Counted from the stretch's first letter, positions 1,243 through 50,936 are shown. The stretch is DNA of 64,000 bases from an uncultured Pseudomonadota bacterium (GCA_902763535.1 CACWSG010000004.1:7568-71567), one strand, 5' to 3'. The notes: a model not told the origin generated them from the letters alone. A program made the numbers and translations.

Positions 1243-2811
1243 CTAAAACAAACTTAATATAGAGTTACTTGATTCTGACGCTAAAGCTAAAGCGTTAACA
1301 GCAAGCTGTTGGCGTGTCTGTAAGGCTAGATAATTAGCACTTTCTTCATTTATTTCAGCCAAAACTAAATTATCAGCTCCGGTTTGCAAAACATCAATTA
1401 AGCCATCGGTAAAATTTTGTCTTGTTTTAATAATGGAAAAATCATTACCCAATTGCTCGCTAATATTGCGCAAAAGTTCTGTTGCATTCTGCAATTGCAA
1501 AATGGTATTTTGCATATCCTCTACATTATTCCATTTTGCTTTGGTTATCCCCAGTGACAACGCATCGGCATTTTTGCCCAAAATTACATATCCATTTGTA
1601 CGTGTCTCATTAAATATTACTGTAAGATTGTTACCATTGAGCAAATTAATACCTTGATAAGATGCATCGTTAATCATTTTGTTGAACGAATCATACATAT
1701 TGTTAAATTGCTGACATGCCCTACTAACTTTATCATCAACGACCCATGTTCCTTTATTGCCAGTGGTATATATTGCATTTAACTCAGTAGCCCTAATATC
1801 ATCAAGTCCTTCAACATTGTAAGTTCTAATATCCGATGTGCACCACTGCGCATAATTTGAACTACCGGTATAAGGAGTTCCTGGATTAAAATTATTAGGC
1901 TGATTATATGTACTAAACTTAAAATCCTTAAGATTGATAACTCTTGCTGATCCGCCATCATCAGACACCCATGTTACCACACCGACAAGAGTTTTAGAAA
2001 CATCACCAGGATTATAATCTCTTGCTGATCCATACGTCATATCGGAATACACAACATCGCCAATTATCGGAAAACCGTCATCACTAACAAATTTATTCTC
2101 CAATAATGTCAAGGCTCTTACATATAATCCGGTGCTTTTATTCGTTTCCGACACATTACCATTGCTCATTGATATAGTCAAAGCTGTATTATCACCGCTT
2201 TCTGATGATGACCAATACGTTCCCGTCCCTATGGTAGAGGATACACTTCTGTCTATATTATATAATTCTGTAAATGCTCTATTAATAGCAGTTTTATGAT
2301 TATAAATATCAACTAATTCACAAGCTGACGGCAAATACCATTTACCTTGCCCCCAATCACCATCATTAGAACTAACTCCAGGAGCATAAAATTGACTGGT
2401 AGCTCTTGCAGCTAAACCCTTCTCTTGTAATTGATCAATGATAATAGGTGAACTTACACGCCCATCAAACTCCGGATCCGCTTCAAAATATGAGGAAACA
2501 AAACTACTCATTGCCGTGGCACTAGCCATGGAATTCATTTGTTCAATCATTTTTAAACCGGCTTCAATTCCCTCGATAGATGCTTGAATAGTTTGAATAC
2601 TCTGTCCCATACTATCCAACAAAGCGTCTAAATCTTTGGAGCGATTCGACAATGCTCTTGACTGATAATAAGATGAGGCATTATCAATTGCATCATTTAC
2701 CTTTTTACCTGTTGACAACCTTGTCTGTGTCGTTCCCATTTTTTTATTAAGTGATTTCAACGACGACAAATTACTCCGCATACTGGCCGTTAATGTTATA
2801 TTGTTTGCCAT
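1243..2811 (-). CDS. Flagellin-family protein with a large non-flagellin central insert (DUF1566/Lcl-C-like)
   Basis: N-terminus ITLTASMRSNLSSLKSL..TQTRLSTGKKVNDAIDNASSYYQSRALSNRSKDLDALLDSMGQ and C-terminus NFTDGLIDVLQTGADNLVLAEINEESANYLALQTRQQLAVNALALA match flagellin D0/D1 helices. GGAGG lies 7 nt before the ATG. The centre carries W-Y-LPS..EL / YWSSSE / YVRAL motifs. Confidence 0.8.
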   Translation of the reverse strand: MANNITLTASMRSNLSSLKSLNKKMGTTQTRLSTGKKVNDAIDNASSYYQSRALSNRSKDLDALLDSMGQSIQTIQASIEGIEAGLKMIEQMNSMASATAMSSFVSSYFEADPEFDGRVSSPIIIDQLQEKGLAARATSQFYAPGVSSNDGDWGQGKWYLPSACELVDIYNHKTAINRAFTELYNIDRSVSSTIGTGTYWSSSESGDNTALTISMSNGNVSETNKSTGLYVRALTLLENKFVSDDGFPIIGDVVYSDMTYGSARDYNPGDVSKTLVGVVTWVSDDGGSARVINLKDFKFSTYNQPNNFNPGTPYTGSSNYAQWCTSDIRTYNVEGLDDIRATELNAIYTTGNKGTWVVDDKVSRACQQFNNMYDSFNKMINDASYQGINLLNGNNLTVIFNETRTNGYVILGKNADALSLGITKAKWNNVEDMQNTILQLQNATELLRNISEQLGNDFSIIKTRQNFTDGLIDVLQTGADNLVLAEINEESANYLALQTRQQLAVNALALASESSNSILSLF

Positions 2812-2940
2812 GATGTACCTCCGGCAATACCATTACATAGCCCAACCTCTGCAAAGCTCAATAAGTTAGCATTATCTTTTACAATTAAAAAATCATCATA
2901 ATGTAATAGCGTATTGATTTTAGGTAATATTATTCCTATC

Positions 2941-2950
2941 GGGGGGGGGG
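2941..2950. repeat. G10 (C10 on the coding strand) homopolymer about 130 nt upstream of the flagellin-like gene
   Basis: Directly visible run gggggggggg in an AT-rich intergenic region. On the minus strand it reads TTGTTG-C10-gatagga-(a)TAATAT. Confidence 0.9.
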
Positions 2951-3271
2951 CAACAAAACATCGCGCCCTCACACAAGTGCACAAAAGATGATATCCTCCT
3001 AAAAGACCTGCCTTTCATAGCATTTCCCCTAACTTTTCGTTGTTTTCACACCACTACGTTATTTATATTATACAATAAACAAAAATACTTGCAATCAAAA
3101 ATACTTCCACGACCACAAAAACATTCTAACATCAAGAAGTTAAATAAACATTAATGTTAATCTAATCTATTTGTGGGCAATTAAAGAGCAAAAATTTAAC
3201 AAAATTAACATAATTTTTACCATAAAATAGTGTTATAATAAAAAGTGTCACGATAGCAAAAGGAGGGGGCT

Positions 3272-4831
3272 ATGCGAAAAGTTGTTATTTTCGGAGCGGT
3301 GTGTAGTGCGTTGCTTGTTTCTTCATCAGCATCGGCTAAAATTACTCCTATTCAGCAATATAAGTTTGGAGAATTAAATCTTGAAAATGATTTCAGATGT
3401 GAGGATATGGACGGATATTATTCTTCCGAACCAGCAGGTCATCAATGTAGCAAAAAAAGCTTTAAAGGGCATGAATGTTACTATAATTGCACTCTAGTGT
3501 GCAACAGTAGTGATTATCCTTATACGGAAAGTAATTGTGTAACCGCCAAGCACGGAGCATTGGGCGGAAATTCTTGCACATTTGAAGGCATAACTCGTTA
3601 CAAAACTTGTTCATGTTCCGATGATTATACAACCTGCGCTTCGCCTAAAACTCACTCAGATGAAGTTTGTACAGCCGATGGTGAAGCCAAATATAAAAAT
3701 TGCGCTTGCCCTGCTGAATATCAATATGCTTGTGATGGAGCCAATCAAACCGGCAGCGGACAATCTTGTGACGGAAGATATACGGCTTGTAATACGACTT
3801 GCCCAGGATCTTATAACAAATTGTGTGATGGTGTCGGAGAAGTCGGTGTAGGTACGCAATGCGGCGGCAAATATCAAAGTTGTGCCTGTGCCAGCACCTA
3901 TCACACTTGCAGTGGTAACGGAGTTGTAGGGATAGGGCAGGCCTGCACAACAGATGGTGGTAACAAATATGCTTCCTGCGGTTGCTCAAGCAATTACAAC
4001 TATTGTGCAAGCAATCAAACCGGTGTCGGTACTCCCTGTACTGCTGATGGTGGAAATAAATACACCAGTTGTGAAACAGTTCCGGAATGTTCTGCAGGTA
4101 AAATTTTGGCCGATGATATGAATTGTTATTCACAATTACCTGTAGGCAGAACAGCTATAGGTGTTATGTTTACTGAGGATTTGGCGGTTGATATTGCGGC
4201 AGTTTCAAGAAACACTTCAACTTATACAGCCGAATTCAGTACCGAAGCTATGAGCTGCAATTATTCTTCTGATTATAGTTTTGGGGCAAACGGAAAGCCT
4301 TGTAACTTTTTGCAGGGGTATCATGTAGGAGTTTCCTCCAGCAGTAGACCTTATTCATGTTATTGCTATGAAAACGGGCAATACGAAACTTATAAGGCCA
4401 ATGCCGTGACTACTGCAAGTAATCCTAAAGGAAAGACCGATACGGCTACTTTTGTAACAAGATTTGGTAGTACCAGCTACGGAGGCAATACTTATTCTGG
4501 AACACCTTTCCATATATGTTACAATAAAACAACATCAGGGTTAGCAGCTCACAGTTGGTTTTTACCGGCTGTAGGTGATATTATTGCTCTAAAGAATAAT
4601 TTGTCTGCAGTTAACAATGGGCTGGAAGCGGTTGGAGGTTTAACTATTTCAAACGGCACCAGTAGCGGTTGTGGAGTAGATGCAATGAATTCATCAACTC
4701 CGCAATATGGTTATGTTTCGAGTAGTGGTAGCGCTTGGTCCTCAGCTTACTTTGCCAGAACCGGACAAGTTACATACGGACAAGGTAATACTCGTTGTAT
4801 TATATCTCGAGCATTAACCACTGCAAACTAA
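3272..4831 (+). CDS. Secreted cysteine-rich repeat protein with DUF1566-like C-terminal domain
   Basis: Signal peptide MRKVVIFGAVCSALLVSSSASA. About 6 degenerate Cys repeats (C..DG(G/E).KY..C.C...Y..C). C-terminus has HSWFLPAVGDIIAL ... SAWSSAYF ... RCIISRAL. Strong RBS AAGGAGGGGG. Confidence 0.7.
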   Translation: MRKVVIFGAVCSALLVSSSASAKITPIQQYKFGELNLENDFRCEDMDGYYSSEPAGHQCSKKSFKGHECYYNCTLVCNSSDYPYTESNCVTAKHGALGGNSCTFEGITRYKTCSCSDDYTTCASPKTHSDEVCTADGEAKYKNCACPAEYQYACDGANQTGSGQSCDGRYTACNTTCPGSYNKLCDGVGEVGVGTQCGGKYQSCACASTYHTCSGNGVVGIGQACTTDGGNKYASCGCSSNYNYCASNQTGVGTPCTADGGNKYTSCETVPECSAGKILADDMNCYSQLPVGRTAIGVMFTEDLAVDIAAVSRNTSTYTAEFSTEAMSCNYSSDYSFGANGKPCNFLQGYHVGVSSSSRPYSCYCYENGQYETYKANAVTTASNPKGKTDTATFVTRFGSTSYGGNTYSGTPFHICYNKTTSGLAAHSWFLPAVGDIIALKNNLSAVNNGLEAVGGLTISNGTSSGCGVDAMNSSTPQYGYVSSSGSAWSSAYFARTGQVTYGQGNTRCIISRALTTAN

Positions 4832-4888: not shown

Positions 4889-7480
4889 TTATTTCTTTTC
4901 TTTAGCTTTGGTTATTTCCAGCCCTCCGTTAAGGACAATTATCTCAGCTGTATCATTGTCTTTAATGTCGCCGTTGATAATTTTAACCGCCAGCTTATTT
5001 TCTATATTATTTTTGAGCAGGCGTTTAAGCGGACGCGCTCCATAAATCGGATCATAACCATTGTTGACAATCCATACAAAAGCGGTGTCGTGTACTTTGA
5101 GTTTTATATTACGCGAGCTCAAACGCTTTTCGATATTAGCAATTTGAATTTGGGCTATTTCTTTGATTGCACTCTTATCCAAGCGATGGAAAATGGTTAT
5201 TTCATCAATTCGGTTGATAAATTCAGGACGAAAAGCACCCTTTACAATATCCATTACTTGAGCACGAATTTTCTTGCCATCATCAGCACCACTGACATTG
5301 CTTAAAATTTCTGATCCGAGGTTTGAAGTCATTATAATCAAGGTATTTTTAAAATCTACCGTGCGTCCTTTACCATCGGTAAGTCTGCCATCATCAAGTA
5401 CTTGCAGCAAAATATTAAAGACATCGGGATGAGCCTTTTCCACTTCATCAAACAAAATTACCTGATAAGGGCGGCGTCGTACCGCTTCTGTCAAAAATCC
5501 TCCTTCTTCATAACCGACATATCCCGGAGGAGAGCCGATTAAACGAGCAACGGCGTGCTTTTCCATGTATTCTGACATATCAACTCGCAAAATCGCGCGT
5601 TCGTCATTGAATAAAAATTCAGCTACGGCTTTGCTGAGTTCGGTTTTGCCTACACCGGTCGGTCCAAGGAACAAAAACGATCCAATCGGTTGGTTGGCAT
5701 CAGAAATGCCGGCTCTTGAGCGTCGAATTGCATTGGCTATGGCCGAGATTGCCTCTTTTTGCCCGACTACACGACGGCTGAGATATTCTTCCATCTTCAG
5801 CAATTTTTCTTTTTCGCCGGTCAGCATTTTATCGACCGGAATACCGGTGCGTTTTGATACAACATGAGCTATATCTTCTTCGGTGACAGTTTCAGAGAAG
5901 GAGCTTTTTTTGTTGCCGTTAAGTTTTTCAGCTTCGGCAATTTTCTTTTCCAAATCAGGAATGATGCTGTATTGCAATTCTCCGGCACGTTCAAATTTGC
6001 CTTCTCTTTTGGCGATATCAACCTCAATTTTAGCTTTGTCAAGTTTGTCTTTTAAAATCGTAAAATCAGCCAAATCGCGCTTATTTTTTTGCCACTTATC
6101 TTCCATTGCCGAGGCTTTGCTTTGTAATGCGTTGATTTCATAATTAATACTCTGTAATCTTTCTTTCGATTGCGCATCGTTTTCTTTGCTCAAAGCGGCA
6201 GCTTCGATTTTGAGTTGAGTTATTTTTCTATCCAACTCGTCCAAATCTTCCGGTTTTGAATCAATAGCCATACGCAAAGCACTGGCTGCTTCATCCATCA
6301 AATCAATGGCCTTATCGGGTAAAAATCTGTCATTTATGTATCTGTCTGATAAAGTGGCTGCGGCTAATAGAGCATTATCAGAGATTTTTACTCCGTGATG
6401 CAGTTCAAATTTTTCCTTTATGCCGCGCAAAATTGAAACAGTGTCTTCAACAGTCGGTTCAGCTACATAAATTTCTTGAAAGCGTCGAGCCAGTGCCGCA
6501 TCTTTTTCGATGTACTTTTTATATTCATTTAAGGTAGTTGCTCCCATGCAGTGCAATTCGCCGCGTGCCAAAGCAGGTTTCAGCAGATTGGACGCATCCA
6601 TAGACCCTTCGGCCGCTCCGGCACCCACAAGAGTATGCATCTCATCAATAAAAAGTATTATTTCTCCTTGAGCTGCTTCAATATCTTTCAAAACAGCTTT
6701 CAACCGTTCTTCAAATTCACCTCTGAATTTTGCGCCGGCAATTAATGCGCCTAAATCCAAAGACAATAAACGCTTTCCCTGTAAGCTTTCCGGTACATCA
6801 TTATTAATTATACGATTGGCCAATCCTTCGACAATAGCGGTTTTGCCTACTCCGGGTTCACCGATTAATACAGGGTTGTTTTTCGTACGCCGTGATAAAA
6901 CCTGAACGGCACGCCTGATTTCTTGTTCGCGTCCGATAACCGGATCAAGCTTTCCTTCTTTGGCGCGTTGAGTTACATCAATGGTGAATTTTTTTAAGGC
7001 ATCAAATGTATCCTCAGCAGTTTGACTTTCGGCCAAGCGTCCTTGTCTGTATTCATTAATGGCGGCATTTAGTTTAGCCGCATCTAATCCGGCCTTGGAT
7101 AAAATGGTACAAGCATCGCTGCTGGGATTAATTGTCAAAGCTTGTAACAAACGTTCTACTGTTACAAATTTATCATTAGCTTTTTCTGCTAATTTTTCAG
7201 CCTCTTGCATGGTGTAGGTAAATTCTTGGCTCATTAATGTTTGTACGGATCCGCCGGCAACTTGAGGCAGCTTAGCAATTTCCGCATCAACACCTTCTTT
7301 GACCGAAGCAACAGAAGCTCCCGCTTTTGTAATCAAATCATTTATAACCGGATTTTTAGCATTCAAAAGAGCTTTCAATAAATGCAATGGTGTAACATAT
7401 TGATTTTTAGCCGCCACAGCCATATTAACGGTCTTTTCAATAATGTCTTTTGATTTATCAGTAAGTTTTTCAAAATCCAT
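4889..7480 (-). CDS. clpB: ATP-dependent chaperone/disaggregase ClpB
   Basis: 863 aa with two AAA+ modules (GEPGVGKT and GPTGVGKT Walker A), a long middle coiled-coil, and a Clp N-domain. Confidence 0.95.
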
Positions 7481-7513
7481 GACTTTTATCTCCCATACAT
7501 CTTCTAATATATA

Positions 7514-7543
7514 ATATAGGAAATACTATGGTTAAAAATCAAG
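7514..7543 (-). promoter_or_regulatory. Sigma-32 (RpoH)-type heat-shock promoter for clpB
   Basis: Minus strand reads CTTGAT-N17-CCTATAT about 35 nt upstream of the clpB ATG. This matches the remembered alphaproteobacterial sigma-32 consensus CTTG-N17/18-CYTATNT. Confidence 0.5.
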
Positions 7544-7557
7544 AGACTTTTTGTGAT

Positions 7558-8697
7558 TTATTGTTTAGGGTGCAAATTTACAACGGCAATGTCAGCAGGA
7601 GCCAATAAACGCATATTCGGTCCTAAGGTTCCGGCGCCGCGTGAAACAAACAAATCAATATCGTTAACTTTGTATGTTCCGGCCAAATAATGATTAAGTT
7701 TTTGCACAAACCAGTGAACAGGGAAAAATTGACCGCCATGGGTGCGTCCCGACAACACAATATCAAACAACTCTTTAGATAAAGCATCTACAATTAAAGG
7801 TGAGTGGGATAACAAAACTCTGTAATTTTCTTTTTTTGATTTATAGATGGTGCGCCACAAATTTATTCTTTCGGCCATTGTAGAATAGTCAGGAATTCCG
7901 GCTATAAATATATTGGCAATTTTAATTGTCGCCCCGCCGTTAAACAAAAAGGTTATTCCTCTCTGCTCAAAAGCTTTTTTTGCATCATAAACATTATTAT
8001 AAAATTCATGATCTCCCATTATTGCATAAATGCCATAGGGAGCACTCAACTCGCGCAACTCATCTAACAAACCGTTTATCTTATTTATATTATCTCCGAT
8101 TGTGTCACCGGTAAGTACAATGGCGTCCGGAGATAAGGCGTTTACTTGATCAACAATGCTCTTAACTCTCTCTTTAGAAGTAGTTCTTGATATGTGTAAA
8201 TCACTTACTTGCACAATCTTTACATTGTTTTTTATCTTGTCACTGTAAAAATTTAATTCTTCTACATAAGGCAGTTTATTGGCTTGCCATGCAGCATAAA
8301 AACAAACTACAAAACTCAGGATAATTACCGCAAAATTGGTTTTATTTAATTTATCGCTGTTATTAGGATCCCATTCCCAAGAAGCTTTATCAAACAATTT
8401 TAAGAGTCTGAATAAAATAAACCAAAAAATATCGCGCAGCATCAAGCAAACAAACAAAATAAACACAAATGCCAGCATACAGTAAAAAATTTGATGCAGT
8501 GAAGTATATGTCATGTCGGTGACAAGATCATATTTCCCGACAAAATATAATATTGGAGCTCCAAACCAGCCAATTATAACCAACGCAATCACAGAATTTT
8601 TAATAATTGGGCTGAAATCACTATAACCAACCAAGTTTCTTATGGTTATTATAGAACAAGCAGCTGCTATTATAACAAAAGCCAATATTACAGACAT
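7558..8697 (-). CDS. Membrane-anchored metallophosphoesterase (YaeI/YkuE-like)
   Basis: N-terminal TM helices followed by calcineurin-like motifs VQVSDLHIS, LTGDTI, GDHEF, LLSHSP, GRTHGGQ. Confidence 0.75.
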   Translation of the reverse strand: MSVILAFVIIAAACSIITIRNLVGYSDFSPIIKNSVIALVIIGWFGAPILYFVGKYDLVTDMTYTSLHQIFYCMLAFVFILFVCLMLRDIFWFILFRLLKLFDKASWEWDPNNSDKLNKTNFAVIILSFVVCFYAAWQANKLPYVEELNFYSDKIKNNVKIVQVSDLHISRTTSKERVKSIVDQVNALSPDAIVLTGDTIGDNINKINGLLDELRELSAPYGIYAIMGDHEFYNNVYDAKKAFEQRGITFLFNGGATIKIANIFIAGIPDYSTMAERINLWRTIYKSKKENYRVLLSHSPLIVDALSKELFDIVLSGRTHGGQFFPVHWFVQKLNHYLAGTYKVNDIDLFVSRGAGTLGPNMRLLAPADIAVVNLHPKQ

Positions 8698-10224: not shown

Positions 10225-10392
10225 TTAACCATTTTGGTTTTGTGCTTTTTGCAAAGGCTGTTTAGTTGTAGCGCCATTTTTGATTACTGCATTATGAACT
10301 TTATCTTTTAAGTGAGTTATAAAATCTTTAACACCACTCATAGTTCTTTCACTGTCTTGAGGATTTGGCTCTTTATAGTTGTAACTTGTCAT
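10225..10392 (-). CDS. Small hypothetical protein (about 55 aa from ATG 10392; track ORF extends to a TTG at 10413)
   Basis: Only an intergenic ORF between prmC and rpoH. No recognisable motif. Confidence 0.25.
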   Translation of the reverse strand: MTSYNYKEPNPQDSERTMSGVKDFITHLKDKVHNAVIKNGATTKQPLQKAQNQNG

Positions 10393-10437
10393 GACCTTAT
10401 TCCTATCGCTCAAATTTTGTCTATTTATGTCAGTGTA

Positions 10438-13984: not shown

Positions 13985-14820
13985 GAGAAACCTAAAATTC
14001 TCGGTTGTTTTTTTATATATCCCCCTCGGACACTTTTTTATTGTCATCCTTGGGGACGCGTTTTTTTTATATGTCATCCTTGGGGACGCGTCAGCGTAAC
14101 CCGAGGATCCAAGCAAATTAGATTCAGAATAGATTCTCGGGTCATACACTCAGTGTATCGCCCGAGAATGACTTTTGGACACTTTTGGTCACTCAAAAGT
14201 GTCAATAATATAAAAAAATTCGAAGATGCCTAATTCGCTCATTTCACTCGCTCAGGCATGACAAAAAACTGTCACCCCTGAAGCCCCTCTACTGTCACCC
14301 TCGGACTTGGAGTCGATAGTTGGCGAGAACAAGGCGCTAGCCGCAGTTCAAGGCTTACGAGACGAAAGGGGCCCAGCTTCGTTGGGAATATCCATCCGAG
14401 GGTCAAACAAATTATCTTCGATTCTCGGGTCAAGCCCGAGAATGACATAAAAGAAAATAAGCCCAAGAATGACAGAAGAAAAATATCGCCCGAGAATGAC
14501 TTTTTATATAGGGTTTGGGATTGCGAGACAAGCGGAATAAGCAAACAGCGAAAAGGCTGGCAAAGATTTGCTTTATGCGGCTTTTGTCGGGCGCGTAAGT
14601 CGCCTGTAAATAAGCCGCAGCCTTATGCCTTTGAGCTGTTTGCCCGCTTGGCGAACAGCCCAATGACTTTTGGACACTTTTGGTCACTCAAAAGTGTCAA
14701 TAATATAATAAAATCGGAAGATGCCTAATTCGCTCATTTCACTCGCTCAGGCATGACAAAACCGGTAATGTCACCCCTGAGTGGTTTGCCAAAACCACGA
14801 ATTAGGGGTCTTCGATGTTT
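13985..14820. repeat. Repeat-dense non-coding region made of several hairpin-repeat families
   Basis: gtcatccttggggacgcg appears twice. (c)ccgagaatgac/attctcggg inverted copies appear at least 5 times. A unit of about 115 nt (approx 14167-14281 and 14662-14780) contains gacacttttg-gtcact-caaaagtgtc and atgcct-aattcgctcatttcactcgctc-aggcat hairpins. Confidence 0.85.
14511..14663. mobile_element. MITE-like 153-nt self-complementary element, copy 1
   Basis: Matches 16653-16805 with 2 mismatches, same orientation. Imperfect terminal inverted repeats (ttgggattgcgagacaagcgg / ccgcttggcgaacagcccaa). Nested internal pairings gcaaacagc/gctgtttgc, aaggctg/cagcctt, tgcggctt/aagccgca. Confidence 0.7.
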
Positions 14821-16526
14821 TAGAACAATTTCAACACTGCATTATTGGATTGTGCCGCTAAGGCAAGAGCATTGACTGCTAATGAATTTCTAGTTTGCAA
14901 AGCAAGATAATTTGCTGACTCTTCATTCATATCCGCCAATACCAAATCATCAGCACCAGTCTGTAATACATCAACCAAACCATCAGTGAAATTCATGCGT
15001 GTTTCAATGATACTTAAATTGTTGCCCAACCTTGCAACCTCATCACGAATAGAAATCATTGCATTTTGAATTTCTTTGATGCTTGCGGCAATATCGCCTT
15101 TGGTCTGCCACTCGCGAGTTGTAATGCCCAATCCGCTCAAGCTCATATCTTTGCCGTTAATAGTATAACTATGCGTGCGGTCTTCATTAAACATTGTGGT
15201 CAACTTGCCGCCTTTGAGCAGGTTGACACCTTGATAACTACTGTCTGATATCATCTCATCAAAAGCACTCATCGCCGTCAAATATTGCTCCGCGCTTTGC
15301 GCTAAAACTTTTTCATCAGCTCGCGGTTCGGCAGTCGGATAAACAAATTGCTCATCTTCAGCCATTCTCTGCACATTCAAAAGGCTTTGAATATTTGATG
15401 CTTGTATATTTTGATTTATTAAACTGGCATCTTCCATCACTTCATAACTTCGCCCACCAACCGTAACATGTGCTCCTTTAGCATAATTAATAACAACCAT
15501 ATTGCTTTCATAGGCCCCTCTTATAGCATTACCCAAAACATCAGCCGAAGCAGCTATATTAACAGTTCCACCTTCACAACCCCACCACCCGTTATTAAAC
15601 ATTTTTCCTTCTATATTTAATACACCATTACTGCAACACAAAACCCCAAAACCTTGAGTTTTGCAGGTTAATTTAGCTCCACTTTTTATCATCATATTTG
15701 CATTGTTTCTAATACCGCGGTTTTGGTTGTCTCCCATAGTTTTAAGATTAACATTTCCTTCAATGGATAAATTCCCCAGATTATAAACAGTGTATGACCA
15801 ATTTGAGCGAATTGGATTGTCTTGATTTATTTCTACATTCTTGATAGTCATCGTTCCATTGTTGCGCAAACAACTATTTGCTGATGAATTAGTGGTAGCA
15901 AAATTGATACTCAAATCCGATATCAAATTGTTTGCCGTGGTATTATTAGCTAACATAATAATGTTACGAGTGCAAGAGGCACTTATCGATGAGAATTTAT
16001 CTATCTCGCTGTCAAAATCGCCAAAATATCCGACACCGACCAGTTTTTGGTTATCATTTAAGGTTAAACCGGAAGTTATTTCGCCCATATCGATATGCCC
16101 ATAAACACAAATGGTTTCCTTGTTAGCATTGACCGCATCTTTGAGCTCTTGTGCTGTTGATACAACCGCGCCATTAGGGCCGACTTGAGCTTCAAACCAA
16201 GCCTTTTCCGGTATGATTGCTGCCTCGTATGCTTCTTTGGCAATCACCGCGGCATTTTCCAATATCTCGCCGCTGGCTTCTAAGCCTTTTACCGCCGTGG
16301 TAATAGTCTGGATACTTTGCCCCATGCTATCAAGGAGCATATCAAGGTCGCTTGCTCGGTTGGTCAAAGCTCGGCTTTGATAATAAGAGTTGGCATTATC
16401 AATCGCTGAGTTCACTTTTTTGCCGGTAGAAAGTCGTGTCTGGGTGGTGGACATCTGACTTGCCAACGACTTCAAGGAACTCAAGTTGCTGCGCATACTG
16501 GAGGTCAAAGTTATGTTAACAGACAT
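14820..16526 (-). CDS. Flagellin-family protein with beta-helix-like central insert
   Basis: True start is ATG 16526 (MSVNITLTSSMRSNLSSLKSL..), preceded by AAGGAGGGGG. The track ORF to 16808 is read-through of the repeat. Flagellin N- and C-terminal helices are present (..NFTDGLVDVLQTGADDLVLADMNEESANYLALQTRNSLAVNALALA). The centre has N.G.l.I-type repeats. Confidence 0.8.
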   Translation of the reverse strand: MSVNITLTSSMRSNLSSLKSLASQMSTTQTRLSTGKKVNSAIDNANSYYQSRALTNRASDLDMLLDSMGQSIQTITTAVKGLEASGEILENAAVIAKEAYEAAIIPEKAWFEAQVGPNGAVVSTAQELKDAVNANKETICVYGHIDMGEITSGLTLNDNQKLVGVGYFGDFDSEIDKFSSISASCTRNIIMLANNTTANNLISDLSINFATTNSSANSCLRNNGTMTIKNVEINQDNPIRSNWSYTVYNLGNLSIEGNVNLKTMGDNQNRGIRNNANMMIKSGAKLTCKTQGFGVLCCSNGVLNIEGKMFNNGWWGCEGGTVNIAASADVLGNAIRGAYESNMVVINYAKGAHVTVGGRSYEVMEDASLINQNIQASNIQSLLNVQRMAEDEQFVYPTAEPRADEKVLAQSAEQYLTAMSAFDEMISDSSYQGVNLLKGGKLTTMFNEDRTHSYTINGKDMSLSGLGITTREWQTKGDIAASIKEIQNAMISIRDEVARLGNNLSIIETRMNFTDGLVDVLQTGADDLVLADMNEESANYLALQTRNSLAVNALALAAQSNNAVLKLF

Positions 16527-16652
16527 AACCCCCTCCTTTTTATTATAACTAATTCGTAGACCCCTAATTCGCTCCTTACAGTCGCTCAGGGGTGACAGGT
16601 GGTGAAATAGACCCCTAATCTTGCTCAAGGGGTGACAGTTTAAAGATTCATC

Positions 16653-16805
16653 GGGTTTGGGATTGCGAGACAAGCGGAATAAGCAAACAGCGAAAAGGCT
16701 GGCAAAGATTTGCTTTGTGCGGCTTTTGTCGGGCGCGTAAGTCGCCTGTAAATAAGCCGCAGCCTTATGCCTTTGAGCTGTTTGCCCGCTTGGCGAACAT
16801 CCCAA
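16653..16805. mobile_element. MITE-like 153-nt element, copy 2 (in the 5' leader of the flagellin-like gene)
   Basis: See copy 1. Followed by the 12-bp perfect hairpin gttacttttggg-tg-cccaaaagtaac. Confidence 0.7.
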
Positions 16806-16894
16806 CACTTTTTGGTTACTTTTGGGTGCCCAAAAGTAACATAAACCGCTTGCAATTACATTGATTAACTGATTGATTTTATTAGATATTCCAT

Positions 16895-16902
16895 GGGGGG
16901 GG
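16895..16902. repeat. G8 (C8 on the coding strand) homopolymer upstream of flagellin-like gene 2
   Basis: Visible run. Minus strand reads TTGAGT-gtta-C8-atggaa-TATCTA (18-nt spacer). Confidence 0.9.
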
Positions 16903-17917: not shown

Positions 17918-18748
17918 TTAAATTGTTCTTGTTTTTTTTAAGGTCTCATTCATGCTGCCGGTGCGATAACCTTTTAGGTCGAGAGTTGTATAAGCAAAAC
18001 CCATTTCGGTAAACTCATTATTGATTTTTTGGCGTACATTATCGACCATAATTTTAGCAAAGTCTTCCGGCAAAATTTCTATTCGAGCTAAATTGCCATG
18101 AATTCGCACCCTAAACTGTCTAAATCCCAAATTAAGCAAAAGCTGTTCAGCCTTATCAACCATCATCAGTTTTTCTTTGGTGATTGTTTCGCCATAAACA
18201 AAACGCGAGGCCAAACAGGCAAAAGATGGTTTATCCCAAGTCGGCAACCCCATTTCTTTTGAAATGTCGCGAATGTCTTGTTTGGAAAGATTACAATCCC
18301 GCAAAGGGCTTTTGATGTTTTGTTCACTCAATGCCTGCAATCCGGGACGATAATCTCCCATATCATCCAAATTGGAGCCTTCAACAATATGCTCAAATCC
18401 TTTATCCAAAGCAATTTTTTTGAGTTGCGTAAAAATAGCCGACTTGCAAAGATAACAACGATTAGCAGGATTTTTTACCACTGCATCATTATGCAGAATA
18501 TCTATCGGTACAATGATATGATTTATCTTTCGGTTGGCACAAAATTCTTTCGCTTCGTCCATTTCGCGCAGTGGGAAAAAATCTGATATTGCAGTCAAAA
18601 CCAGCAATTTATTGGAAGGCAAAACTTCTTTTGCTACCGCGACCAAAAAGGTTGAATCAACTCCGCCGGAGAAGGCTATTGCAACCGATTCCAAATTTTT
18701 AAGGTAGCACTTTAAATCCGCCAACTTTTGTTCTAAATCTTTATTCAT
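17918..18748 (-). CDS. larE: LarE, ATP-dependent sacrificial sulfur transferase (PP-loop)
   Basis: Likely start is MNKDLEQ at 18748, an 8-nt overlap with the larC stop. PP-loop SGGVDS. SFACLASRF contains the conserved Cys. Confidence 0.8.
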   Translation of the reverse strand: MNKDLEQKLADLKCYLKNLESVAIAFSGGVDSTFLVAVAKEVLPSNKLLVLTAISDFFPLREMDEAKEFCANRKINHIIVPIDILHNDAVVKNPANRCYLCKSAIFTQLKKIALDKGFEHIVEGSNLDDMGDYRPGLQALSEQNIKSPLRDCNLSKQDIRDISKEMGLPTWDKPSFACLASRFVYGETITKEKLMMVDKAEQLLLNLGFRQFRVRIHGNLARIEILPEDFAKIMVDNVRQKINNEFTEMGFAYTTLDLKGYRTGSMNETLKKTRTI

Positions 18749-20027
18749 AATACTCTTTGCTTTCAGCTTTTTGTTGCGCGGCGGTAAAAATTTCGTGAAA
18801 CGAAGCACCCGATTTCAGCGCCAATTCTTTAACACTTTCATATTCCGGCTGACAACGGATAATGTCTTTATAGGTGGAAATTTTGACCTTTACCTCGCCA
18901 TTTTGCAATTTTACTTTAACAATTTTACGCTCCATGCAAGAACGATCCACCATATATTTGCGCAAACCGATTGTCGATGTATGGCGAAAGACGGCATCTT
19001 CAACTTTTGCCAAAGCAGCGCCATTGGTAATTGCCCGCAACATATACGCCGGACGGCACTTTTTCATATAACAGGGCTCAAAATGCACATCAAAAGCACC
19101 GGCTGAAAAAATTTGTTCCATTGCAAAACCCAGTTCTTCAGGTGTTGAGTCGTCAATATTGCTTTCTACCACCCACATCTGGTCGTCATCCGAAACATCT
19201 TCAATCAGCATAATGCGCAAAAAATTAGCTTTGCCAAAGTCGCGTTTGCCTAATCCGATGCCTGATTTTAAGATTTTGTATTGTGCCGGCAATCTGTCAT
19301 GCGTTTTTATGGCTGCGGCAATAGCTATGCCGGTAGGGGTAACCATTTCTCCTTTTACGGCACTGGAGCGCAAAACAATACCTTCGGCTTGTGCAATATT
19401 AAACACGGCCGGAACCGGTACGGGAAGCTCACCATGCTGGCACATAATAGTGCCTTCACCCTCGGTCAAACCGCAGACAATGCAATTCTCTATTCTCAAA
19501 TCATCAATCAACACAGCTGCTGAAATAATATCGACTATTGAATCAATTGCGCCGACTTCGTGAAAATGCACTTCTTCTTTTTTCACTCCGTGAGCTTTGG
19601 CTTCGGCAACAGCCACGATGTCAAAAATTTTTTTAGCCAATGTTTTGGCTTTATCGCTCATATCAGCACTGTCAATAATAGCAATAACATCATTCAAGTG
19701 GCGATGCTGATGGTGATGGTGCTCATGTTCATGATGATGTTCATGTTCATGTTCATGTTCATGATCGTGATGATGGTGCTCATGTTCATGATGATGCTCA
19801 TGATAATGTTCTTCATGCGGTGCATCTTCATGATGGTGTACGGCAAAATCAAGTCCGGCAATGCTGTATGAATTTTTATGCTCAATGTGATAATGAAATT
19901 CATCGGAATTAAGACTGCGCAAAGCCTTTTCCATTTTTTCTTTTGCTGCTCCCATATTCAAAAGAGCGGCCACCGTCATATCGCCGGAAATTCCGCTTGC
20001 ACCTTCAATATAGAGATATTTAGTCAT
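18741..20027 (-). CDS. larC: LarC, nickel insertion (NPN cyclometallase), DUF111 family
   Basis: N-terminal GASGISGDM. Very long His/Glu tract (HHHEDAPHEEHYHEHHHEHEHHHHDHEHEHEHEHHHEHEHHHHQHRH). DUF111-type C-terminus. Confidence 0.85.
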   Translation of the reverse strand: MTKYLYIEGASGISGDMTVAALLNMGAAKEKMEKALRSLNSDEFHYHIEHKNSYSIAGLDFAVHHHEDAPHEEHYHEHHHEHEHHHHDHEHEHEHEHHHEHEHHHHQHRHLNDVIAIIDSADMSDKAKTLAKKIFDIVAVAEAKAHGVKKEEVHFHEVGAIDSIVDIISAAVLIDDLRIENCIVCGLTEGEGTIMCQHGELPVPVPAVFNIAQAEGIVLRSSAVKGEMVTPTGIAIAAAIKTHDRLPAQYKILKSGIGLGKRDFGKANFLRIMLIEDVSDDDQMWVVESNIDDSTPEELGFAMEQIFSAGAFDVHFEPCYMKKCRPAYMLRAITNGAALAKVEDAVFRHTSTIGLRKYMVDRSCMERKIVKVKLQNGEVKVKISTYKDIIRCQPEYESVKELALKSGASFHEIFTAAQQKAESKEYYE

Positions 20028-45181: not shown

Positions 45182-45310
45182 AGCAAAGTCCTTATTTTTA
45201 TTTGAATATGGGGCATCATAACATAAAAGATGTAAAAAACAATTAAGATAATTAAAAAAATTACTTGATTTTTGTAATTTATGCTGTATGTTTGGCACAT
45301 ATTCAATGCC

Positions 45311-45362
45311 GGGCTCTACGAAAAAAAGATTTTATTATTATGCCGCTATAGCTCAGTGGTAG
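45311..45362 (+). repeat. Duplicate of the tRNA-Thr leader plus tRNA positions 1-21 (pseudo-tRNA fragment)
   Basis: 52 nt match 45488-45539 with 1 mismatch. After gccgctatagctcagtggtag the copy diverges. Confidence 0.85.
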
Positions 45363-45518
45363 TGCTAAGTAAAATTGATACAGTGTATCAATTTTGTCTG
45401 CAAACTCTTTGGAACATCTTAGCGAGAGAGGGCAGCTTAATAGCAACCGAAGCGAGCTTAGATGCCAAAGGCACACCCTTTAAGGGTGGGCTCTACGAAA
45501 AGAAGATTTTATTATTAT

Positions 45519-45593
45519 GCCGCTATAGCTCAGTGGTAGAGCACACCCTTGGTAAGGGTGGGGTCGCAAGTCCGATTCTTGCTAGCGGCACCA
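45519..45593 (+). tRNA. tRNA-Thr (anticodon GGT)
   Basis: Hand-folded cloverleaf: acceptor GCCGCTA/TAGCGGC, D-arm GCTC-AGTGGTA-GAGC, anticodon arm CACCC-TTGGTAA-GGGTG, T-arm GCAAG-TCCGATT-CTTGC, encoded CCA. The T-loop reads TCC rather than the usual TTC. Confidence 0.8.
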
Positions 45594-45755
45594 TTAAAAA
45601 AGCCACCTTTATGGTGGTTTTTTTAATGGTAACATAAGCCAAGAACAGACTTGCGGGGGTAACGCAAAGTCCGAACCGATTTCGCCAAAGCGTGAAATGC
45701 TTTGGCGGCAGAGGACGACAGCGAGCAAATGAGGATTTGCGAGCTGTCATTCGCA

Positions 45756-45786
45756 GCTAGCGGCACCATTAAAAAAACCACCTTTA
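45756..45786 (+). repeat. Duplicate of the tRNA-Thr 3' end plus terminator start (att-like)
   Basis: gctagcggcaccattaaaaaaaccaccttta matches 45581-45611 with 1 mismatch. Confidence 0.85.
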
Positions 45787-45810
45787 GAAGGTGGTTTTTT
45801 AATAAGCAAT

Positions 45811-46848
45811 TTACTTTAAATTTTCCTTGAAAAATTGTTCAATTTTATCAAACGGAATTTTGCTCATATTGTCATACAAATCAACATGGTTGGCATCGGG
45901 CACAATATACAATTCTTTGTTATCGCCTTTAAGTTTCTTAAAAGCATCTTCGCTGAAATAGCGGCTATGTGCTTTTTCGCCATGTACTACCAACACCGCA
46001 TTTTTAATAGTGTCGCTATATGCCAAAATCGGTTGAGTAATTAAAGACAATGCCGAAGTGGTATTCCAGTTGCCGTTCGAGTTAATTGAGCGGGGATGAA
46101 AACCGCGCGGTGTTTTATAATATTCAAAATATTCTTTGACAAACAACGGCTCTTCACCGGTCAATTTTTCCGGCAGCCCCGGAGCTTTGGCAAAAGTTCC
46201 TGCTTTATAATCTTTTGTGCGTTGGTTGTTTAGATCCTCACGCAATTTGTATAAATCCTCTTCGCTCATAACATCATTATAGCCTTTGGACGATACTCTG
46301 GTCATGTCATACATCGTTGAGGCTACGGTTGCTTTGATGCGGGTATCTTGTGCCGCGGCATTGAGCCCGAAACCGCCAAATCCGCAAATGCCGATAATAC
46401 CGATTTTGTTTTTATCAACTTGCGGCAAAGTCAGCAAATAATCTACCGCTGCACTAAAATCATCGGTATTGACATCAGGTGAAGCTACATTGCGCGCCTT
46501 ACCACCGGATTCACCGGTAAAAGACGGATCAAAAGCCAAAGTGATAAATCCGCGCTCAGCCAAGGTTTGGGCATATAATCCCGAGGCTTGTTCTTTAACT
46601 GCACCAAACGGACCTGATATGGCAATTGCCGAGCCGTTAATGGCATTTTTGTCTTTAGGCTCATACAAATCACCGGCTAAATCAATGCCAAAGCGATTGG
46701 TAAAACTAACCTTTTTTACTTCAACTTTGTCAGATTTTGCAAACACCTTATCCCAAGACTCGCCATCAGCCGCTATTGCCTTGCCGTTGGGAGCAAATGC
46801 CACACCCAAAGCGGCGATAGAACAAGCGCAAAGATTCTTCAAATTCAT
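45811..46848 (-). CDS. Secreted alpha/beta hydrolase (dienelactone-hydrolase-like, Cys nucleophile elbow)
   Basis: Signal peptide MNLKNLCACSIAALGVAFAPNGKAIA. Nucleophile elbow GICGFGG. C-terminal HVDLY His motif. Confidence 0.7.
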   Translation of the reverse strand: MNLKNLCACSIAALGVAFAPNGKAIAADGESWDKVFAKSDKVEVKKVSFTNRFGIDLAGDLYEPKDKNAINGSAIAISGPFGAVKEQASGLYAQTLAERGFITLAFDPSFTGESGGKARNVASPDVNTDDFSAAVDYLLTLPQVDKNKIGIIGICGFGGFGLNAAAQDTRIKATVASTMYDMTRVSSKGYNDVMSEEDLYKLREDLNNQRTKDYKAGTFAKAPGLPEKLTGEEPLFVKEYFEYYKTPRGFHPRSINSNGNWNTTSALSLITQPILAYSDTIKNAVLVVHGEKAHSRYFSEDAFKKLKGDNKELYIVPDANHVDLYDNMSKIPFDKIEQFFKENLK

Positions 46849-46878
46849 TTTTCACCTCACAAAATTAAAACTATAAGC

Positions 46879-46909
46879 AATATAATTATTAGAGTAAACT
46901 CTAAGTCAA
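46879..46909 (-). promoter_or_regulatory. MerR-type promoter/operator, site C (upstream of the alpha/beta hydrolase)
   Basis: Minus strand: TTGACT-TAGAGTTTACTCTAATAAT-TATATT. 19-nt spacer, perfect dyad TTAGAGT-TT-ACTCTAA. Confidence 0.6.
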
Positions 46910-46980
46910 GTACTTTTAATCATTTGTTAAAAAAACTCTGTTACAAATTGAACTAATTTAAGATTGTAAATGGGCAGATT

Positions 46981-47271
46981 ATGCAAGAATTTATCGGATT
47001 AATCGGATCACTTTGTTTTGCTTTCAGCTCTTGGCCGCAAGCGTGGTATTCATGGCGCCACCAAACAGCCAAAGGGGTTAAATGGTCGTTTATATTTTTG
47101 TGGCTTTCGGGGTCATTTTTCAGCACCATTTATGCAATTTATTATCAAAAATATATGTTGCTGCCCAATTATTTGTGCGGTGGTGCAGGGACTTTGGTAA
47201 TTTTGTATGTGCGAATTGTTGAATTTCGAAAACGTCATGATAAAGTTGATCAAAGGAGAAAAAATGCTTGA
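46981..47271 (+). CDS. PQ-loop (SemiSWEET-like) 3-TM protein
   Basis: 96 aa, SSWPQAWYSWR PQ motif in TM1, 3 predicted TMs. Confidence 0.55.
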   Translation: MQEFIGLIGSLCFAFSSWPQAWYSWRHQTAKGVKWSFIFLWLSGSFFSTIYAIYYQKYMLLPNYLCGGAGTLVILYVRIVEFRKRHDKVDQRRKNA

Positions 47272-47530
47272 GTTTATAATTGATATTTGCGGTTGGATTG
47301 GTGCTTTATCCTATTCAATTTATTCTATTCCTCAAGCGACATCAGCAATTCACTTAGGGCGCACTCAAGGGTTGAGCTCCGGCATGGTGATATTGTTGTT
47401 TGGCGGAGCGTTGTGCAGTTTGATTTATATCTTGCCCGATACTTCGTCACCATTGTTTTATAACTTTGGACTTTCGCTGATATCAGCAACTACTATTTTT
47501 CGTTATCACTTTTGGCCGCGAAAAAAATAG
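47264..47530 (+). CDS. PQ-loop (SemiSWEET-like) 3-TM protein, overlapping the previous gene by 8 nt
   Basis: Start MLEFIID at 47264 after AAAGGAGAA. YSIPQATSAIHLGRTQGLS PQ motif. Confidence 0.55.
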   Translation: MLEFIIDICGWIGALSYSIYSIPQATSAIHLGRTQGLSSGMVILLFGGALCSLIYILPDTSSPLFYNFGLSLISATTIFRYHFWPRKK

Positions 47531-47535
47531 CCGGT

Positions 47536-47796
47536 CTATCGCTTGTTTTGAATAATTATCCATAAAATGGGCAAAGCAAACGCTAAAGAAATACCGTTGC
47601 AAATCATCATTTGCCATGAACTTAAATATACGCCATAAGCAGTCCATAACAGCATGGTTATACAATATATTATATAAGAACTTAGTGATAACCCTGTAGT
47701 GTCGCGTGTTGAAATGGTCTTAATCGCTTGTGGTAAAAATACTACTGCCGAACCGATGCCGGCCAATATGCCCAAACTCTCGCCGATTATACTCAT
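47536..47796 (-). CDS. SemiSWEET/PQ-loop 3-TM protein
   Basis: 86 aa. VFLPQAIKTISTRDTTGLSL is the canonical bacterial SemiSWEET motif. Confidence 0.6.
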   Translation of the reverse strand: MSIIGESLGILAGIGSAVVFLPQAIKTISTRDTTGLSLSSYIIYCITMLLWTAYGVYLSSWQMMICNGISLAFALPILWIIIQNKR

Positions 47797-47872
47797 TTTA
47801 TTAATACCTTTGTAATAATGTTTAGGCTATGATACAGACAAATAAGTTAAATTTTAGTTTAGGTCAAAATAA

Positions 47873-48397
47873 ATGCAGCTTTATCACTACGCTAAAAAAG
47901 GTAATACGGTTTTAAGCAAGGGAATATTATCTTTTGCCGCTAACCCCAAAGCCGACTTGCATTATTATCAAAAACGCTCATGTGCTACCACTCATCAAGG
48001 AATAGTTGCTTGGATGGAAAGCTGCTTTGCGGGACGCTCAAGAGGTATCCGCTGTTTTTCCGAGCCGATAGCTTGGACGAACAAAAGCCTTCATTGCTTG
48101 AAAGATTTTGTTGATGAGTGTGATATGTTCGCCATTGATATTGATGCGCTCAAAAAAGATGGTCTGATAGAGGCGGTTTATGTATCCCCGCCGATTAGTG
48201 ATTTCCCTGAAATAAAAGAAAAACCCGGCATGGATGAAATTTTGTTAAAATTAAATTCGGTTAATGATATTGATTTTTCAGCCGTTGATTGGAGCGTTTG
48301 TGATGATGCAACCGGCAAACGCTTTGCCTTTGTCCGTTATTATTTATTGATAATCAAAGACGGGATAATTCCACCGAAATACATTAAAAAAGTATAA
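47873..48397 (+). CDS. Hypothetical cytoplasmic protein
   Basis: 174-aa ORF in an otherwise empty interval. No motif recognised. Confidence 0.4.
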   Translation: MQLYHYAKKGNTVLSKGILSFAANPKADLHYYQKRSCATTHQGIVAWMESCFAGRSRGIRCFSEPIAWTNKSLHCLKDFVDECDMFAIDIDALKKDGLIEAVYVSPPISDFPEIKEKPGMDEILLKLNSVNDIDFSAVDWSVCDDATGKRFAFVRYYLLIIKDGIIPPKYIKKV

Positions 48398-48398
48398 T

Positions 48399-48920
48399 CT
48401 ATTTCACCACTCCGCAAGCAATTCTTGCGCCTCCTCCGCCCAAAGGGGCAGGGGTGTCTTGATAGTTATCGCCGCCCTCGTGAATCATCAGCGAGCGGCC
48501 TTTAATTTCACTCAATTTAAGGTGCGGAGCATAAACTGTTTGTTTAACTTTTTGCTCTTTATCAGCACTCAAATAGGGCAAATCCCCTTTATGCCCGTTC
48601 TTATCCGGTCCTAAATGTTGTGCTGTTTTGTCCGGATCATAATGCCCTTTGGCTTTTAACCCGGCAGTCATTTTGCCGGTGCTGTCAGTATCTGCGCCGC
48701 AATCTCCCATCTCATGAACATGAAAACCATGCTCTCCTTGGGGCAAACCTTGCAGGTCAACTGCCAGTTGCAGTCCTTGAGGTGTATCCTGCATTTCTAT
48801 AGTTCCGATTTTTTTGCTTAAACCCTCAGCATTTATCAAATAAATTTCGGTTATGCTTTTATCTCTGCCATAACAAGCCGCTAATACTAACAAAGACAAC
48901 AACGCAAAATATTTTTTCAT
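48399..48920 (-). CDS. sodC: Periplasmic Cu/Zn superoxide dismutase lipoprotein
   Basis: Start MKKYFALLSLLVLAAC at 48920. GEHGFHVHEMGDCG and GGGGARIACGVV motifs. Confidence 0.85.
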   Translation of the reverse strand: MKKYFALLSLLVLAACYGRDKSITEIYLINAEGLSKKIGTIEMQDTPQGLQLAVDLQGLPQGEHGFHVHEMGDCGADTDSTGKMTAGLKAKGHYDPDKTAQHLGPDKNGHKGDLPYLSADKEQKVKQTVYAPHLKLSEIKGRSLMIHEGGDNYQDTPAPLGGGGARIACGVVK

Positions 48921-49003
48921 TCTATTTCTCCTCTTATAAGCTAAATATAATTTGCCTTTTGTTATTTTCCAAGTTATATCTTGCCGCATAAGGAGAAAAA
49001 ACA

Positions 49004-49528
49004 ATGCCGACCTATCTCATTATCGGTAACATATTTTCATTGCTTTCGGCAATATGTATTGCCATATCGGTGGCACAAAAAAGCAAAAAGAAGTTTATGC
49101 TGTGGCAGATTGGTGATACGGCTTTCGGAATAGGCGTTAATATCGCTTTGGTAACTTATGCGGCCTTAGTTATAAGCATAATCTGCCTTATTCGCAACAT
49201 CTTGTCTTATTGCGGCAAACTCACCAAAAGCATCACGGTTATCTTTACTGTTTTGGGGGTGATAATCGGTTTTTTAGTCAACAATCTGGGATTTATCGGG
49301 TGGTTTCCCATAGTCGCTTCTGCCAGTTATACCATTTTTATCTATACCACCAAAAATGAGCAACAAATGCGCTATGCCTCAATTTTGAATATGGTTTTGT
49401 GGTTGGTGCACAATGCTTATGTCGGGGCTTATCCTTCGGCAATAGCCAATGTCATCTTGTGCGGTTGGACAATCTGGCAGATATGGCAATACCATAAAAA
49501 CATTGACAAAAAATCAAAAGACATCTAA
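49004..49528 (+). CDS. YgjV-like inner membrane protein
   Basis: 174 aa with two 3-TM halves. N-terminal IGNIFSLLSAICIAISVAQKSKKK resembles the Imp-YgjV family. Confidence 0.5.
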   Translation: MPTYLIIGNIFSLLSAICIAISVAQKSKKKFMLWQIGDTAFGIGVNIALVTYAALVISIICLIRNILSYCGKLTKSITVIFTVLGVIIGFLVNNLGFIGWFPIVASASYTIFIYTTKNEQQMRYASILNMVLWLVHNAYVGAYPSAIANVILCGWTIWQIWQYHKNIDKKSKDI

Positions 49529-49582
49529 ACTGAGCCAAATTTTACTATTATGCAAATTATGTTTAACCTAAAAAAATAGATT

Positions 49583-49828
49583 ATGTATATAAAAGAGATA
49601 AAAAGAGCGCCCTACATTTGTATAGTGCCAAGCAGCGGGCCTCATGCCATCAAGTGTTATCCGGATGCTAAGACATGGGTCATAAACGGTCAAAAATTCG
49701 GATATTCCAAAAGAGAACAAACCATGATTGCCCCAATGGCTGTTAGTAAGGCTGAAATAGAAAATGCAAAAAAGTTCTTTGAGGAAATTTCTCTCTCCGA
49801 ATGGAAAGGATTATTTCCCTCTGATTGA
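49583..49828 (+). CDS. Small soluble protein, family A copy 1 (unknown function)
   Basis: 81 aa. Paralogous to 51240-51473 (IKRAPYIC.VP..G..A.KCYPDA.T.VING.KFGYS..EQT.I.P). No SD; A-rich leader. Confidence 0.5.
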   Translation: MYIKEIKRAPYICIVPSSGPHAIKCYPDAKTWVINGQKFGYSKREQTMIAPMAVSKAEIENAKKFFEEISLSEWKGLFPSD

Positions 49829-49905
49829 AAGCAGCAAAAGAGATGTTGGCGATGCTCTAGCTTCTCATTTATGCCAATTAAATGTCTAATTAAAAATAAA
49901 AAATT

Positions 49906-50205: not shown

Positions 50206-50224
50206 CCAATAAAAACAAAATATT

Positions 50225-50485: not shown

Positions 50486-50534
50486 ATTGTGGGAATAGGA
50501 ATAATACTGATGATAAAAAACAAATAATCAATTT

Positions 50535-50921: not shown

Positions 50922-50936
50922 CTAAAAACAAAAATT

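Follow-up and report, generated by a model that had tools for sequence, protein, structure and literature searches.

The gene described here lies on the minus strand of a 64,000-nt stretch of DNA from an uncultured Pseudomonadota bacterium (GCA_902763535.1 CACWSG010000004.1:7568-71567), which is referred to at its full length as the window. It encodes a flagellin with a foreign centre, and some of its homologues in other gut and rumen bacteria bear the marks of targets of a diversity-generating retroelement (DGR). The gene and its parts, counted from the first nucleotide of the window, are as follows:

1243..2811, minus strand: flagellin gene, 522 aa plus stop (ATG-to-stop open reading frame, Flagellin_N, NCBIfam, AlphaFold2 and Foldseek)
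2503..2811, minus strand: N-terminal D0/D1 helices, aa 1-103 (helices of the model and Pfam Flagellin_N)
1738..2502, minus strand: two-part insert module, aa 104-358, which takes the D2/D3 position (AlphaFold2 confidence and homologues)
2092..2469, minus strand: DUF1566/Lcl_C-type (C-type-lectin-like) subdomain, aa ~115-240 (Pfam, profile and Foldseek)
2122..2199, minus strand: aa 205-230, SGDNTALTISMSNGNVSETNKSTGLY, homologue of the segment that forms the DGR variable region in relatives (alignment to the template and variable repeats of loci L011, L069 and L086); it appears fixed
1777..2079, minus strand: beta-rich second subdomain, aa ~245-345, which holds GVVTWVSDDGGSARVINLKD and has no family assignment (no Pfam match alone or permuted)
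1246..1737, minus strand: C-terminal D1/D0, aa 359-522 (helices of the model, beta-hairpin 396-410 and NCBIfam)

Both ends of the protein are those of a flagellin, as the first-pass annotation, made from the sequence alone, had held. In Pfam, Flagellin_N (PF00669) matches aa 12-100 with 39.6 bits, well above the curated cut-off of 26.6, and aa 365-521 are covered by NCBIfam flagellin subfamily models. Flagellin_C (PF00700), which is matched by most homologues and by a second flagellin of the window, gave no match at E<=1 in this protein, while a family-specific C-terminal hidden Markov model scores it with 220 bits. The profile search that the first-pass annotation had suggested thus came out mixed: PF00669 lies above its cut-off, PF00700 is missing, and the lectin-type family PF07603 is significant and stays below its cut-off. 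An AlphaFold2 model, which was built on 120 homologues and has a mean predicted local distance difference test score (pLDDT) of 82.9, shows helices at 9-35, 45-103, 360-382, 430-485 and 489-521 as well as a beta-hairpin at 396-410. This is the four-helix architecture of D0/D1, with the insert placed between ND1 and CD1, and the best Protein Data Bank (PDB) matches of the full model in Foldseek are Caulobacter flagellin filaments (probability 1.00). According to the family alignment, the family-invariant D0/D1 positions are retained. Furthermore, four independent assemblies contain the gene with 100% nucleotide identity, and their flanks carry single-nucleotide polymorphisms. The gene is not decaying; decay, together with the absence of an export apparatus, had been named beforehand as a finding that would speak against the reading. 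The open reading frame (ORF) at 1243-2811 is a real and intact flagellin gene.

The centre is of a different kind. In the model, ~255 aa of foreign sequence (aa 104-358) stand between the flagellin helices, fewer than the ~330 aa estimated initially, and this insert is confidently folded (pLDDT 94-98 over aa 120-340 of the full model). Modelled alone, it reached a pLDDT of 93.5 and a predicted template modelling score of 0.91. All three peptides quoted in the first-pass annotation are present, namely GKWYLPSACELVDIY at aa 156-170, TYWSSSES...VRALTLL at aa 198-237 and GVVTWVSDDGGSARVINLKD at aa 277-296. Lcl_C (PF07603, formerly DUF1566) matches aa 154-233 of the whole protein with E 3e-7 and 31.2 bits, a score below the curated gathering cut-off of 34.9 bits; the insert alone scores 32.5 bits, and the E-values for insert and whole protein range from 1e-7 to 3e-7. 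The homologous insert of a related flagellin, P0096, exceeds the same cut-off (38.0 vs 34.9 bits), and among the best 120 homologues, 55 come with a precomputed PF07603 match. A profile of 24 inserts aligned with the C-terminal domain of the Legionella pneumophila adhesin Lcl (8q4e) at E 1.6e-4, exactly on YWSS...VR. The same domain is the top PDB match of the insert-only model in Foldseek, as a fold match a weak one (E 0.16, probability 0.75, template modelling score 0.44). In a viral structure library, the insert matched several phage proteins annotated as 'DUF1566 domain-containing' and a tail fibre with probabilities of 0.99-1.00 and root-mean-square deviations of 2.1-5.3 over 117-185 columns. 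On account of the Pfam E-value, the score of P0096, the profile match to 8q4e and these fold matches, the reading that the D2/D3 position of the flagellin scaffold carries a DUF1566/Lcl_C-like lectin-type domain is supported. The W-LP/YWSS/VR signature had accordingly been recognized correctly as that of DUF1566, and the structural model, likewise proposed at that stage, does put an insert with lectin-like fold matches into the D2/D3 position.

The beta-rich second subdomain has no Pfam match, be it alone or permuted. In nearly all copies of the module scored in relatives, flagellins or not, it comes after the lectin subdomain. A segment starting with GVVTWVS had been taken for the N-terminal part of the DUF1566 domain, an assignment we do not maintain: the segment alone is without matches, and a circularly permuted construct, in which it was put before the lectin part, brought no improvement (32.8 vs 32.5 bits over the same profile range, 40-115).

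The two-part module was found in 120 of the 120 best homologues, many of which possess an extra beta-helix-like domain before it. A genome scan, for which one genome per species was employed, yielded 78 loci in 29 metagenome-assembled genomes (MAGs), all of uncultured Alphaproteobacteria from human, ruminant, deer or mouse gut. One of these MAGs comprises 12 loci of module flagellin with at least 13 genes, and the complete flaN-lectin-sub2-flaC architecture was seen in 51 genes. As far as sampled, the family is confined to uncultured gut and rumen Alphaproteobacteria. An exhaustive search of the insert against 1.84 billion representative proteins gave only 330 matches at E<=1e-3, none of them above 48% identity, which makes the window copy the most divergent member known. 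In relatives, the flanks of some loci encode FlgG/FlgH, FlgI/FlgK, FlgE, FlgB/FlgC and an FlhB C-terminal-like match, and thus the relatives have flagellar hardware. Their module flagellin genes are scattered among housekeeping genes, with flagellar genes elsewhere in those genomes. While the module occurs once per flagellin, large non-flagellin proteins of related genomes contain it in 1-4 tandem copies. Such tandem proteins of up to ~1,700 aa were observed at L085 (6223-10852), L073, L047 and L041. Since they lack flagellin ends, the module is an independent, mobile building block in these bacteria.

Within the family, variation is concentrated in one place. The stretch between YWSSSE and VRCF, which corresponds to aa 205-230 of the window protein, has by far the highest entropy of the family alignment, and most differences between proteins that are almost the same but come from different samples lie within it. 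In the cluster of P0096, 18 of 26 columns are variable inside the segment compared with 10 of 752 outside, and the clusters of P0049 and P0107 behave likewise. At locus L011, genes for a reverse transcriptase (RT; RVT_1, with the motifs IGNLTSQ and YVDD) and an accessory protein (bAvd) are located directly upstream of the flagellin P0096, and a 115-nt template repeat (TR) stands just before the RT. All 11 of its 11 mismatches to the variable region (VR) fall on TR adenines. The same cassette, in the order TR-RT-Avd-target, is found in two further species-level genomes, L069 and L086, with 16/16 and 18/18 mismatches on TR adenines, which brings the total for the three loci to 45 of 45 (chance ~3e-21). 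A template, an RT, an Avd and mismatches restricted to adenines form the defining signature of a diversity-generating retroelement. Judged by this signature, a DGR is acting on the surface lectin domain of a flagellin in L011, L069 and L086. The templates translate to an Asn-rich WSSSE-N-rich-YVRCFQ, and the variable region is internal to the flagellin, a 26-residue segment followed by ~300 further codons.

In addition, an RT homologue adjoins a complete flagellin of the same type in L053, L040 and L062, with an Avd in L053 and L062. At L053, where RT and Avd are encoded at 6767-8363, no template repeat was detectable; this locus may represent a decayed or decaying DGR, so that the family may include cases in which DGR function has been lost. 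The closest relatives of the window protein, P0002 and P0003, lie on contigs that end just upstream of the gene; P0002 and its orthologue in the rumen MAG RUG10672 show a mild enrichment of changes in the segment (3/26 vs 10/583). Contig breaks just upstream of family flagellin genes are frequent in general (P0049, P0002, P0003). In some alleles, a stop codon was observed inside the hypervariable segment, splitting the flagellin into two ORFs (L025 at ~10307-10417; P0147/P0140).

The corresponding segment of the window protein lines up at each position with the TR/VR pairs of L011, L069 and L086, while the window copy fails every DGR-target test that we applied and carries no marks of ongoing or recent DGR rewriting. 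A scan of both strands of the window for an adenine-tolerant template returned only the segment itself. In the window plus 10-kb flanks (~84 kb in total), we found neither an RVT_1 or bAvd gene nor a tblastn match to the RT and Avd of L011. This alone would be compatible with an active target that is served in trans, by a template and an RT elsewhere in the genome: the homologues are proven DGR targets, the cluster of P0049 varies without an RT within 10 kb downstream (the gene lies at a contig end), as would fit remote targets, and it is ~84 kb of the genome that have been seen. However, the sequence of the segment itself argues otherwise. P0001, P0121 and P0122, from 11 contigs in total, all have it in the same form, although these proteins differ elsewhere, and in the window cluster 0 variable columns lie within it as opposed to 3 outside. 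Compared with the templates of the relatives, it contains 38-41 mismatches at non-adenine positions. Its fraction of NNY codons is 0.54, the second lowest of 67 (family median 0.75, proven pairs 0.85). The family scaffold residues W211, R220 and C233, which are encoded by non-adenine bases of the TR, are replaced by L, V and A, and the segment departs at its 3' end from the sequence that the TR/VR of the relatives conserve there. Neither the NNY imprint nor the W/G/R/K/VRC scaffold is thus found in the window copy, and we regard targeting in trans as improbable. When JGI metagenome contigs were searched with a pattern for alleles of the segment or templates for it, 0 matches were obtained, the organism being apparently absent from that collection.

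Taken together, it is quite likely that the gene at 1243-2811, from an uncultured alphaproteobacterium of the rumen, is a fixed-specificity member of a DGR-targeted flagellin family and that its filament displays a lectin-like domain. The protein would polymerise via D0/D1, and every subunit of the filament would then present the lectin-like domain outward. The module might bind its ligand through the face that is diversified in the relatives. One fixed specificity for a glycan, host or particle ligand would be expected here in place of programmed variation, the lineage having either lost the DGR targeting of this copy or never possessed it.

Alternatively, the insert could be a structural or antigenic outer domain without any specific ligand, which shields or stabilises the filament or serves as a decoy for the immune system or for phages. 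The hypervariation of the relatives would in this case reflect escape from antibodies or flagellotropic phages and not binding. The outer domains of many flagellins are indeed structural or antigenic, and many paralogues with different segments in one genome would fit antigenic variation as well. However, the diversified segment coincides with the part of the lectin fold for which the alignment to the Lcl adhesin domain was obtained, and the tandem arrays of the module in large non-flagellin proteins are typical of adhesins. Moreover, DGR variable proteins are typically ligand-binding (PMC11661182), and DUF1566-type DGR targets are found among surface and adhesion proteins (PMC5758913). We thus consider an outer domain of purely structural or antigenic function unlikely.

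Several points nevertheless weigh against a filament with a lectin-like domain of fixed specificity. The Lcl_C score of the window protein remains under the gathering cut-off, the fold match to 8q4e is weak, and to our knowledge most DUF1566 domains themselves have no known ligand. The contigs sampled are nearly clonal, so that the invariance of the segment counts for less than it would if the population were diverse, and assemblies collapse variants within a sample. The inspection covered ~84 kb, which leaves room for a distant DGR with its own template or for an absent flagellar apparatus. Furthermore, no sigma-28 or sigma-54 flagellar promoter consensus was found upstream of the window flagellins and of 43 homologues.

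A second flagellin gene lies in the same window:

14820..16526, minus strand: paralogue of 568 aa, the second flagellin, its insert unrelated to that of the first (Flagellin_N 37.6 bits, Flagellin_C 24.1 bits)

Both of its Pfam scores are above the respective cut-offs. The D0/D1 regions of the two flagellins share 59% identity at the N-terminus and 55% at the C-terminus, whereas their inserts do not align; the beta-rich insert of the second flagellin has no BLASTP similarity to P0096 outside D0/D1. In a repeat search of the whole window, one match touches the first gene (2753-2802 vs 16468-16517, 74%), which is the N-terminus of the second flagellin, and no partner for the insert of the first flagellin was found. 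The earlier claim that no other flagellar gene is present within 64 kb therefore fails with respect to the second flagellin, while it stands for the apparatus: no flagellar apparatus gene was found in the window and 10 kb beyond each end (~84 kb). One might take this absence, together with the undetected Pfam Flagellin_C and the position of the gene as the most divergent family member (<=48% insert identity), as a hint toward a relic or a protein outside any filament, either a decaying paralogue or a cargo of a flagellar secretion system. Yet the ORF is intact and preceded by a strong ribosome-binding site, it retains the family-invariant D0/D1 positions, its sequence is identical across assemblies, and a second intact flagellin is encoded 12 kb away. 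The flagellins of the relatives also reside among housekeeping genes, with the flagellar genes located elsewhere in those genomes. A relic or non-filament protein is thus very improbable.

The genes of the window are otherwise housekeeping genes, including members of the families IalB, Rick_17kDa_Anti and DUF4167, which we take to be typical of Alphaproteobacteria. The window has a GC content of ~39% and matches rumen metagenome scaffolds at 99.9-100% identity; the nearest species-level genome is the rumen MAG RUG10672 mentioned above. The second flagellin is flanked by non-coding 188-nt repeats of 93% identity (14508-14695 vs 16650-16837), and the regions 14167-14761 and 16551-16837 also hold a 100-nt repeat (97%) and three copies of a 47-nt element. 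In another sample, an 81-nt insertion is found at window position 16538/16539, just upstream of the start of this gene.

On the plus strand, divergent to the first flagellin, a 519-aa ORF at 3272-4831 encodes a protein with many cysteines and a hydrophobic N-terminus that resembles a signal peptide as judged by eye. It has no Pfam or NCBIfam match. Within its C-terminal part, aa 386-455 (...HSWFLPAVGDIIALKNNLSAVNNGL...) show a weak hhalign match to the first half of the flagellin insert (E 1.2e-3, probability 19.5%), and the protein may be another lectin-type surface protein. Elsewhere in the window, a region with the 5' end of a tRNA-Thr has a 64-nt partial duplicate (45302-45365 vs 45479-45542), diverged duplicates of 70-73% identity lie at 49589-49742 and 51249-51402, and a Phage_Mu_F-like ORF is located at 52298-53308. 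Taken as a group, the duplicates at 45302-51402 and the Phage_Mu_F-like ORF may be remnants of one integrated element. A run of 12-nt repeats at 19692-19835, within an ORF without family match on the minus strand (18741-20027), appears, judged by the sequence of the repeats, to encode a histidine-rich tract.

The region in front of the first flagellin comprises one further feature:

2812..3094, minus strand: upstream region with GGAGG at 2818-2822, C10 at 2941-2950 and TTGCAA-16-TATAAT at 3094-3067

GGAGG represents the ribosome-binding site, and the sigma-70-like TTGCAA-16-TATAAT is a consensus match only. The motif TTTCTGTGGAAAAGTTT was observed in ~16 of 45 upstream regions of family members at related loci, and a looser version is situated near -245 of the first window flagellin. 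Homopolymer tracts of at least 8 nt are found only three times in the 64-kb window. The C10 tract (coding strand) lies 131-140 nt upstream of the start codon of the first flagellin, and a C8 tract (16895-16902, coding strand) lies ~370 nt upstream of that of the second. In the relatives, 2 of 8 tracts of at least 8 nt in 1.32 Mb are located within 400 nt upstream of flagellin genes. The length of the poly-C tract is the same in four assemblies. Poly-C tracts upstream of flagellins may point to slipped-strand phase variation.

Among solved structures, the Lcl C-terminal domain of L. pneumophila (PF07603; 8Q4E) is the best match of the insert by both profile and fold, with the W-LP/YWSS/VR signature in common. 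However, in Lcl this domain stands at the C-terminus of a collagen-like adhesin, while it is located here between flagellin D1 helices and is followed by a beta-rich subdomain; only positions 40-115 of the 117 of the Lcl_C profile align. For the flagellin core, the Caulobacter filaments of FljK/L/M/N (9cef, 8uxj) are the best structural match, and Caulobacter too has several flagellin paralogues per genome, but its flagellins lack any outer domain, unlike the window flagellin. Flagellins of the flagellinolysin type have an enzymatic outer domain. In them, too, a foreign domain occupies the hypervariable position of a conserved D0/D1 core, the domain in the present case being lectin-like and not enzymatic.

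The variable regions of DGRs usually lie near the C-terminus of the target. DUF1566/CLec2 constitutes category 'd' of DGR variable proteins according to Wu et al. 2018, an example being Legionella LdtA (PMC5758913). The relatives L011, L069 and L086 have the same lectin segment as a bona fide variable region, yet their target is a flagellin and the region is internal to it. A functional analogue of these relatives is provided by the type V pili of Bacteroides, the adhesive tips of which are diversified by a DGR (bioRxiv 10.1101/2024.11.15.621889). Here as well, an exposed binding domain of a gut surface appendage is rewritten, while the appendage is a pilus and both phylum and protein family differ; the paper on the pili does not mention flagella. 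PMC6642488 lists 'flagellin' as a single word among DGR target annotations; no such entry was found in supplements of that paper. Apart from that, flagella are without mention in three DGR surveys and in a recent gut DGR study, within a search that most subscription journals lie outside of. In the searchable literature, which omits most subscription journals, a DGR-targeted flagellin family is thus undescribed, and a prior description may exist.

On balance, the evidence favours the broader view that gut and rumen Alphaproteobacteria build filaments with an exposed lectin-like domain rewritten by a DGR, a class undescribed as such, of which the window gene is a divergent, fixed member. The outer domains of flagellins are usually treated as passive and antigenically variable. 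The family described here would instead put a lectin-type domain on every subunit of the filament. If this is true, the flagellum would join phage tail fibres, pili and lipoproteins among the structures diversified by DGRs, with a programmable binding or antigenic specificity, and the segment would offer a handle at sequence level on the targets to which uncultured gut Alphaproteobacteria attach or which they evade. In this respect the window copy would be a natural fixed control, since it shares the fold and the place in the filament but not the hypermutation, and could serve to compare specificities as well as the gain and loss of DGR targeting within the family.

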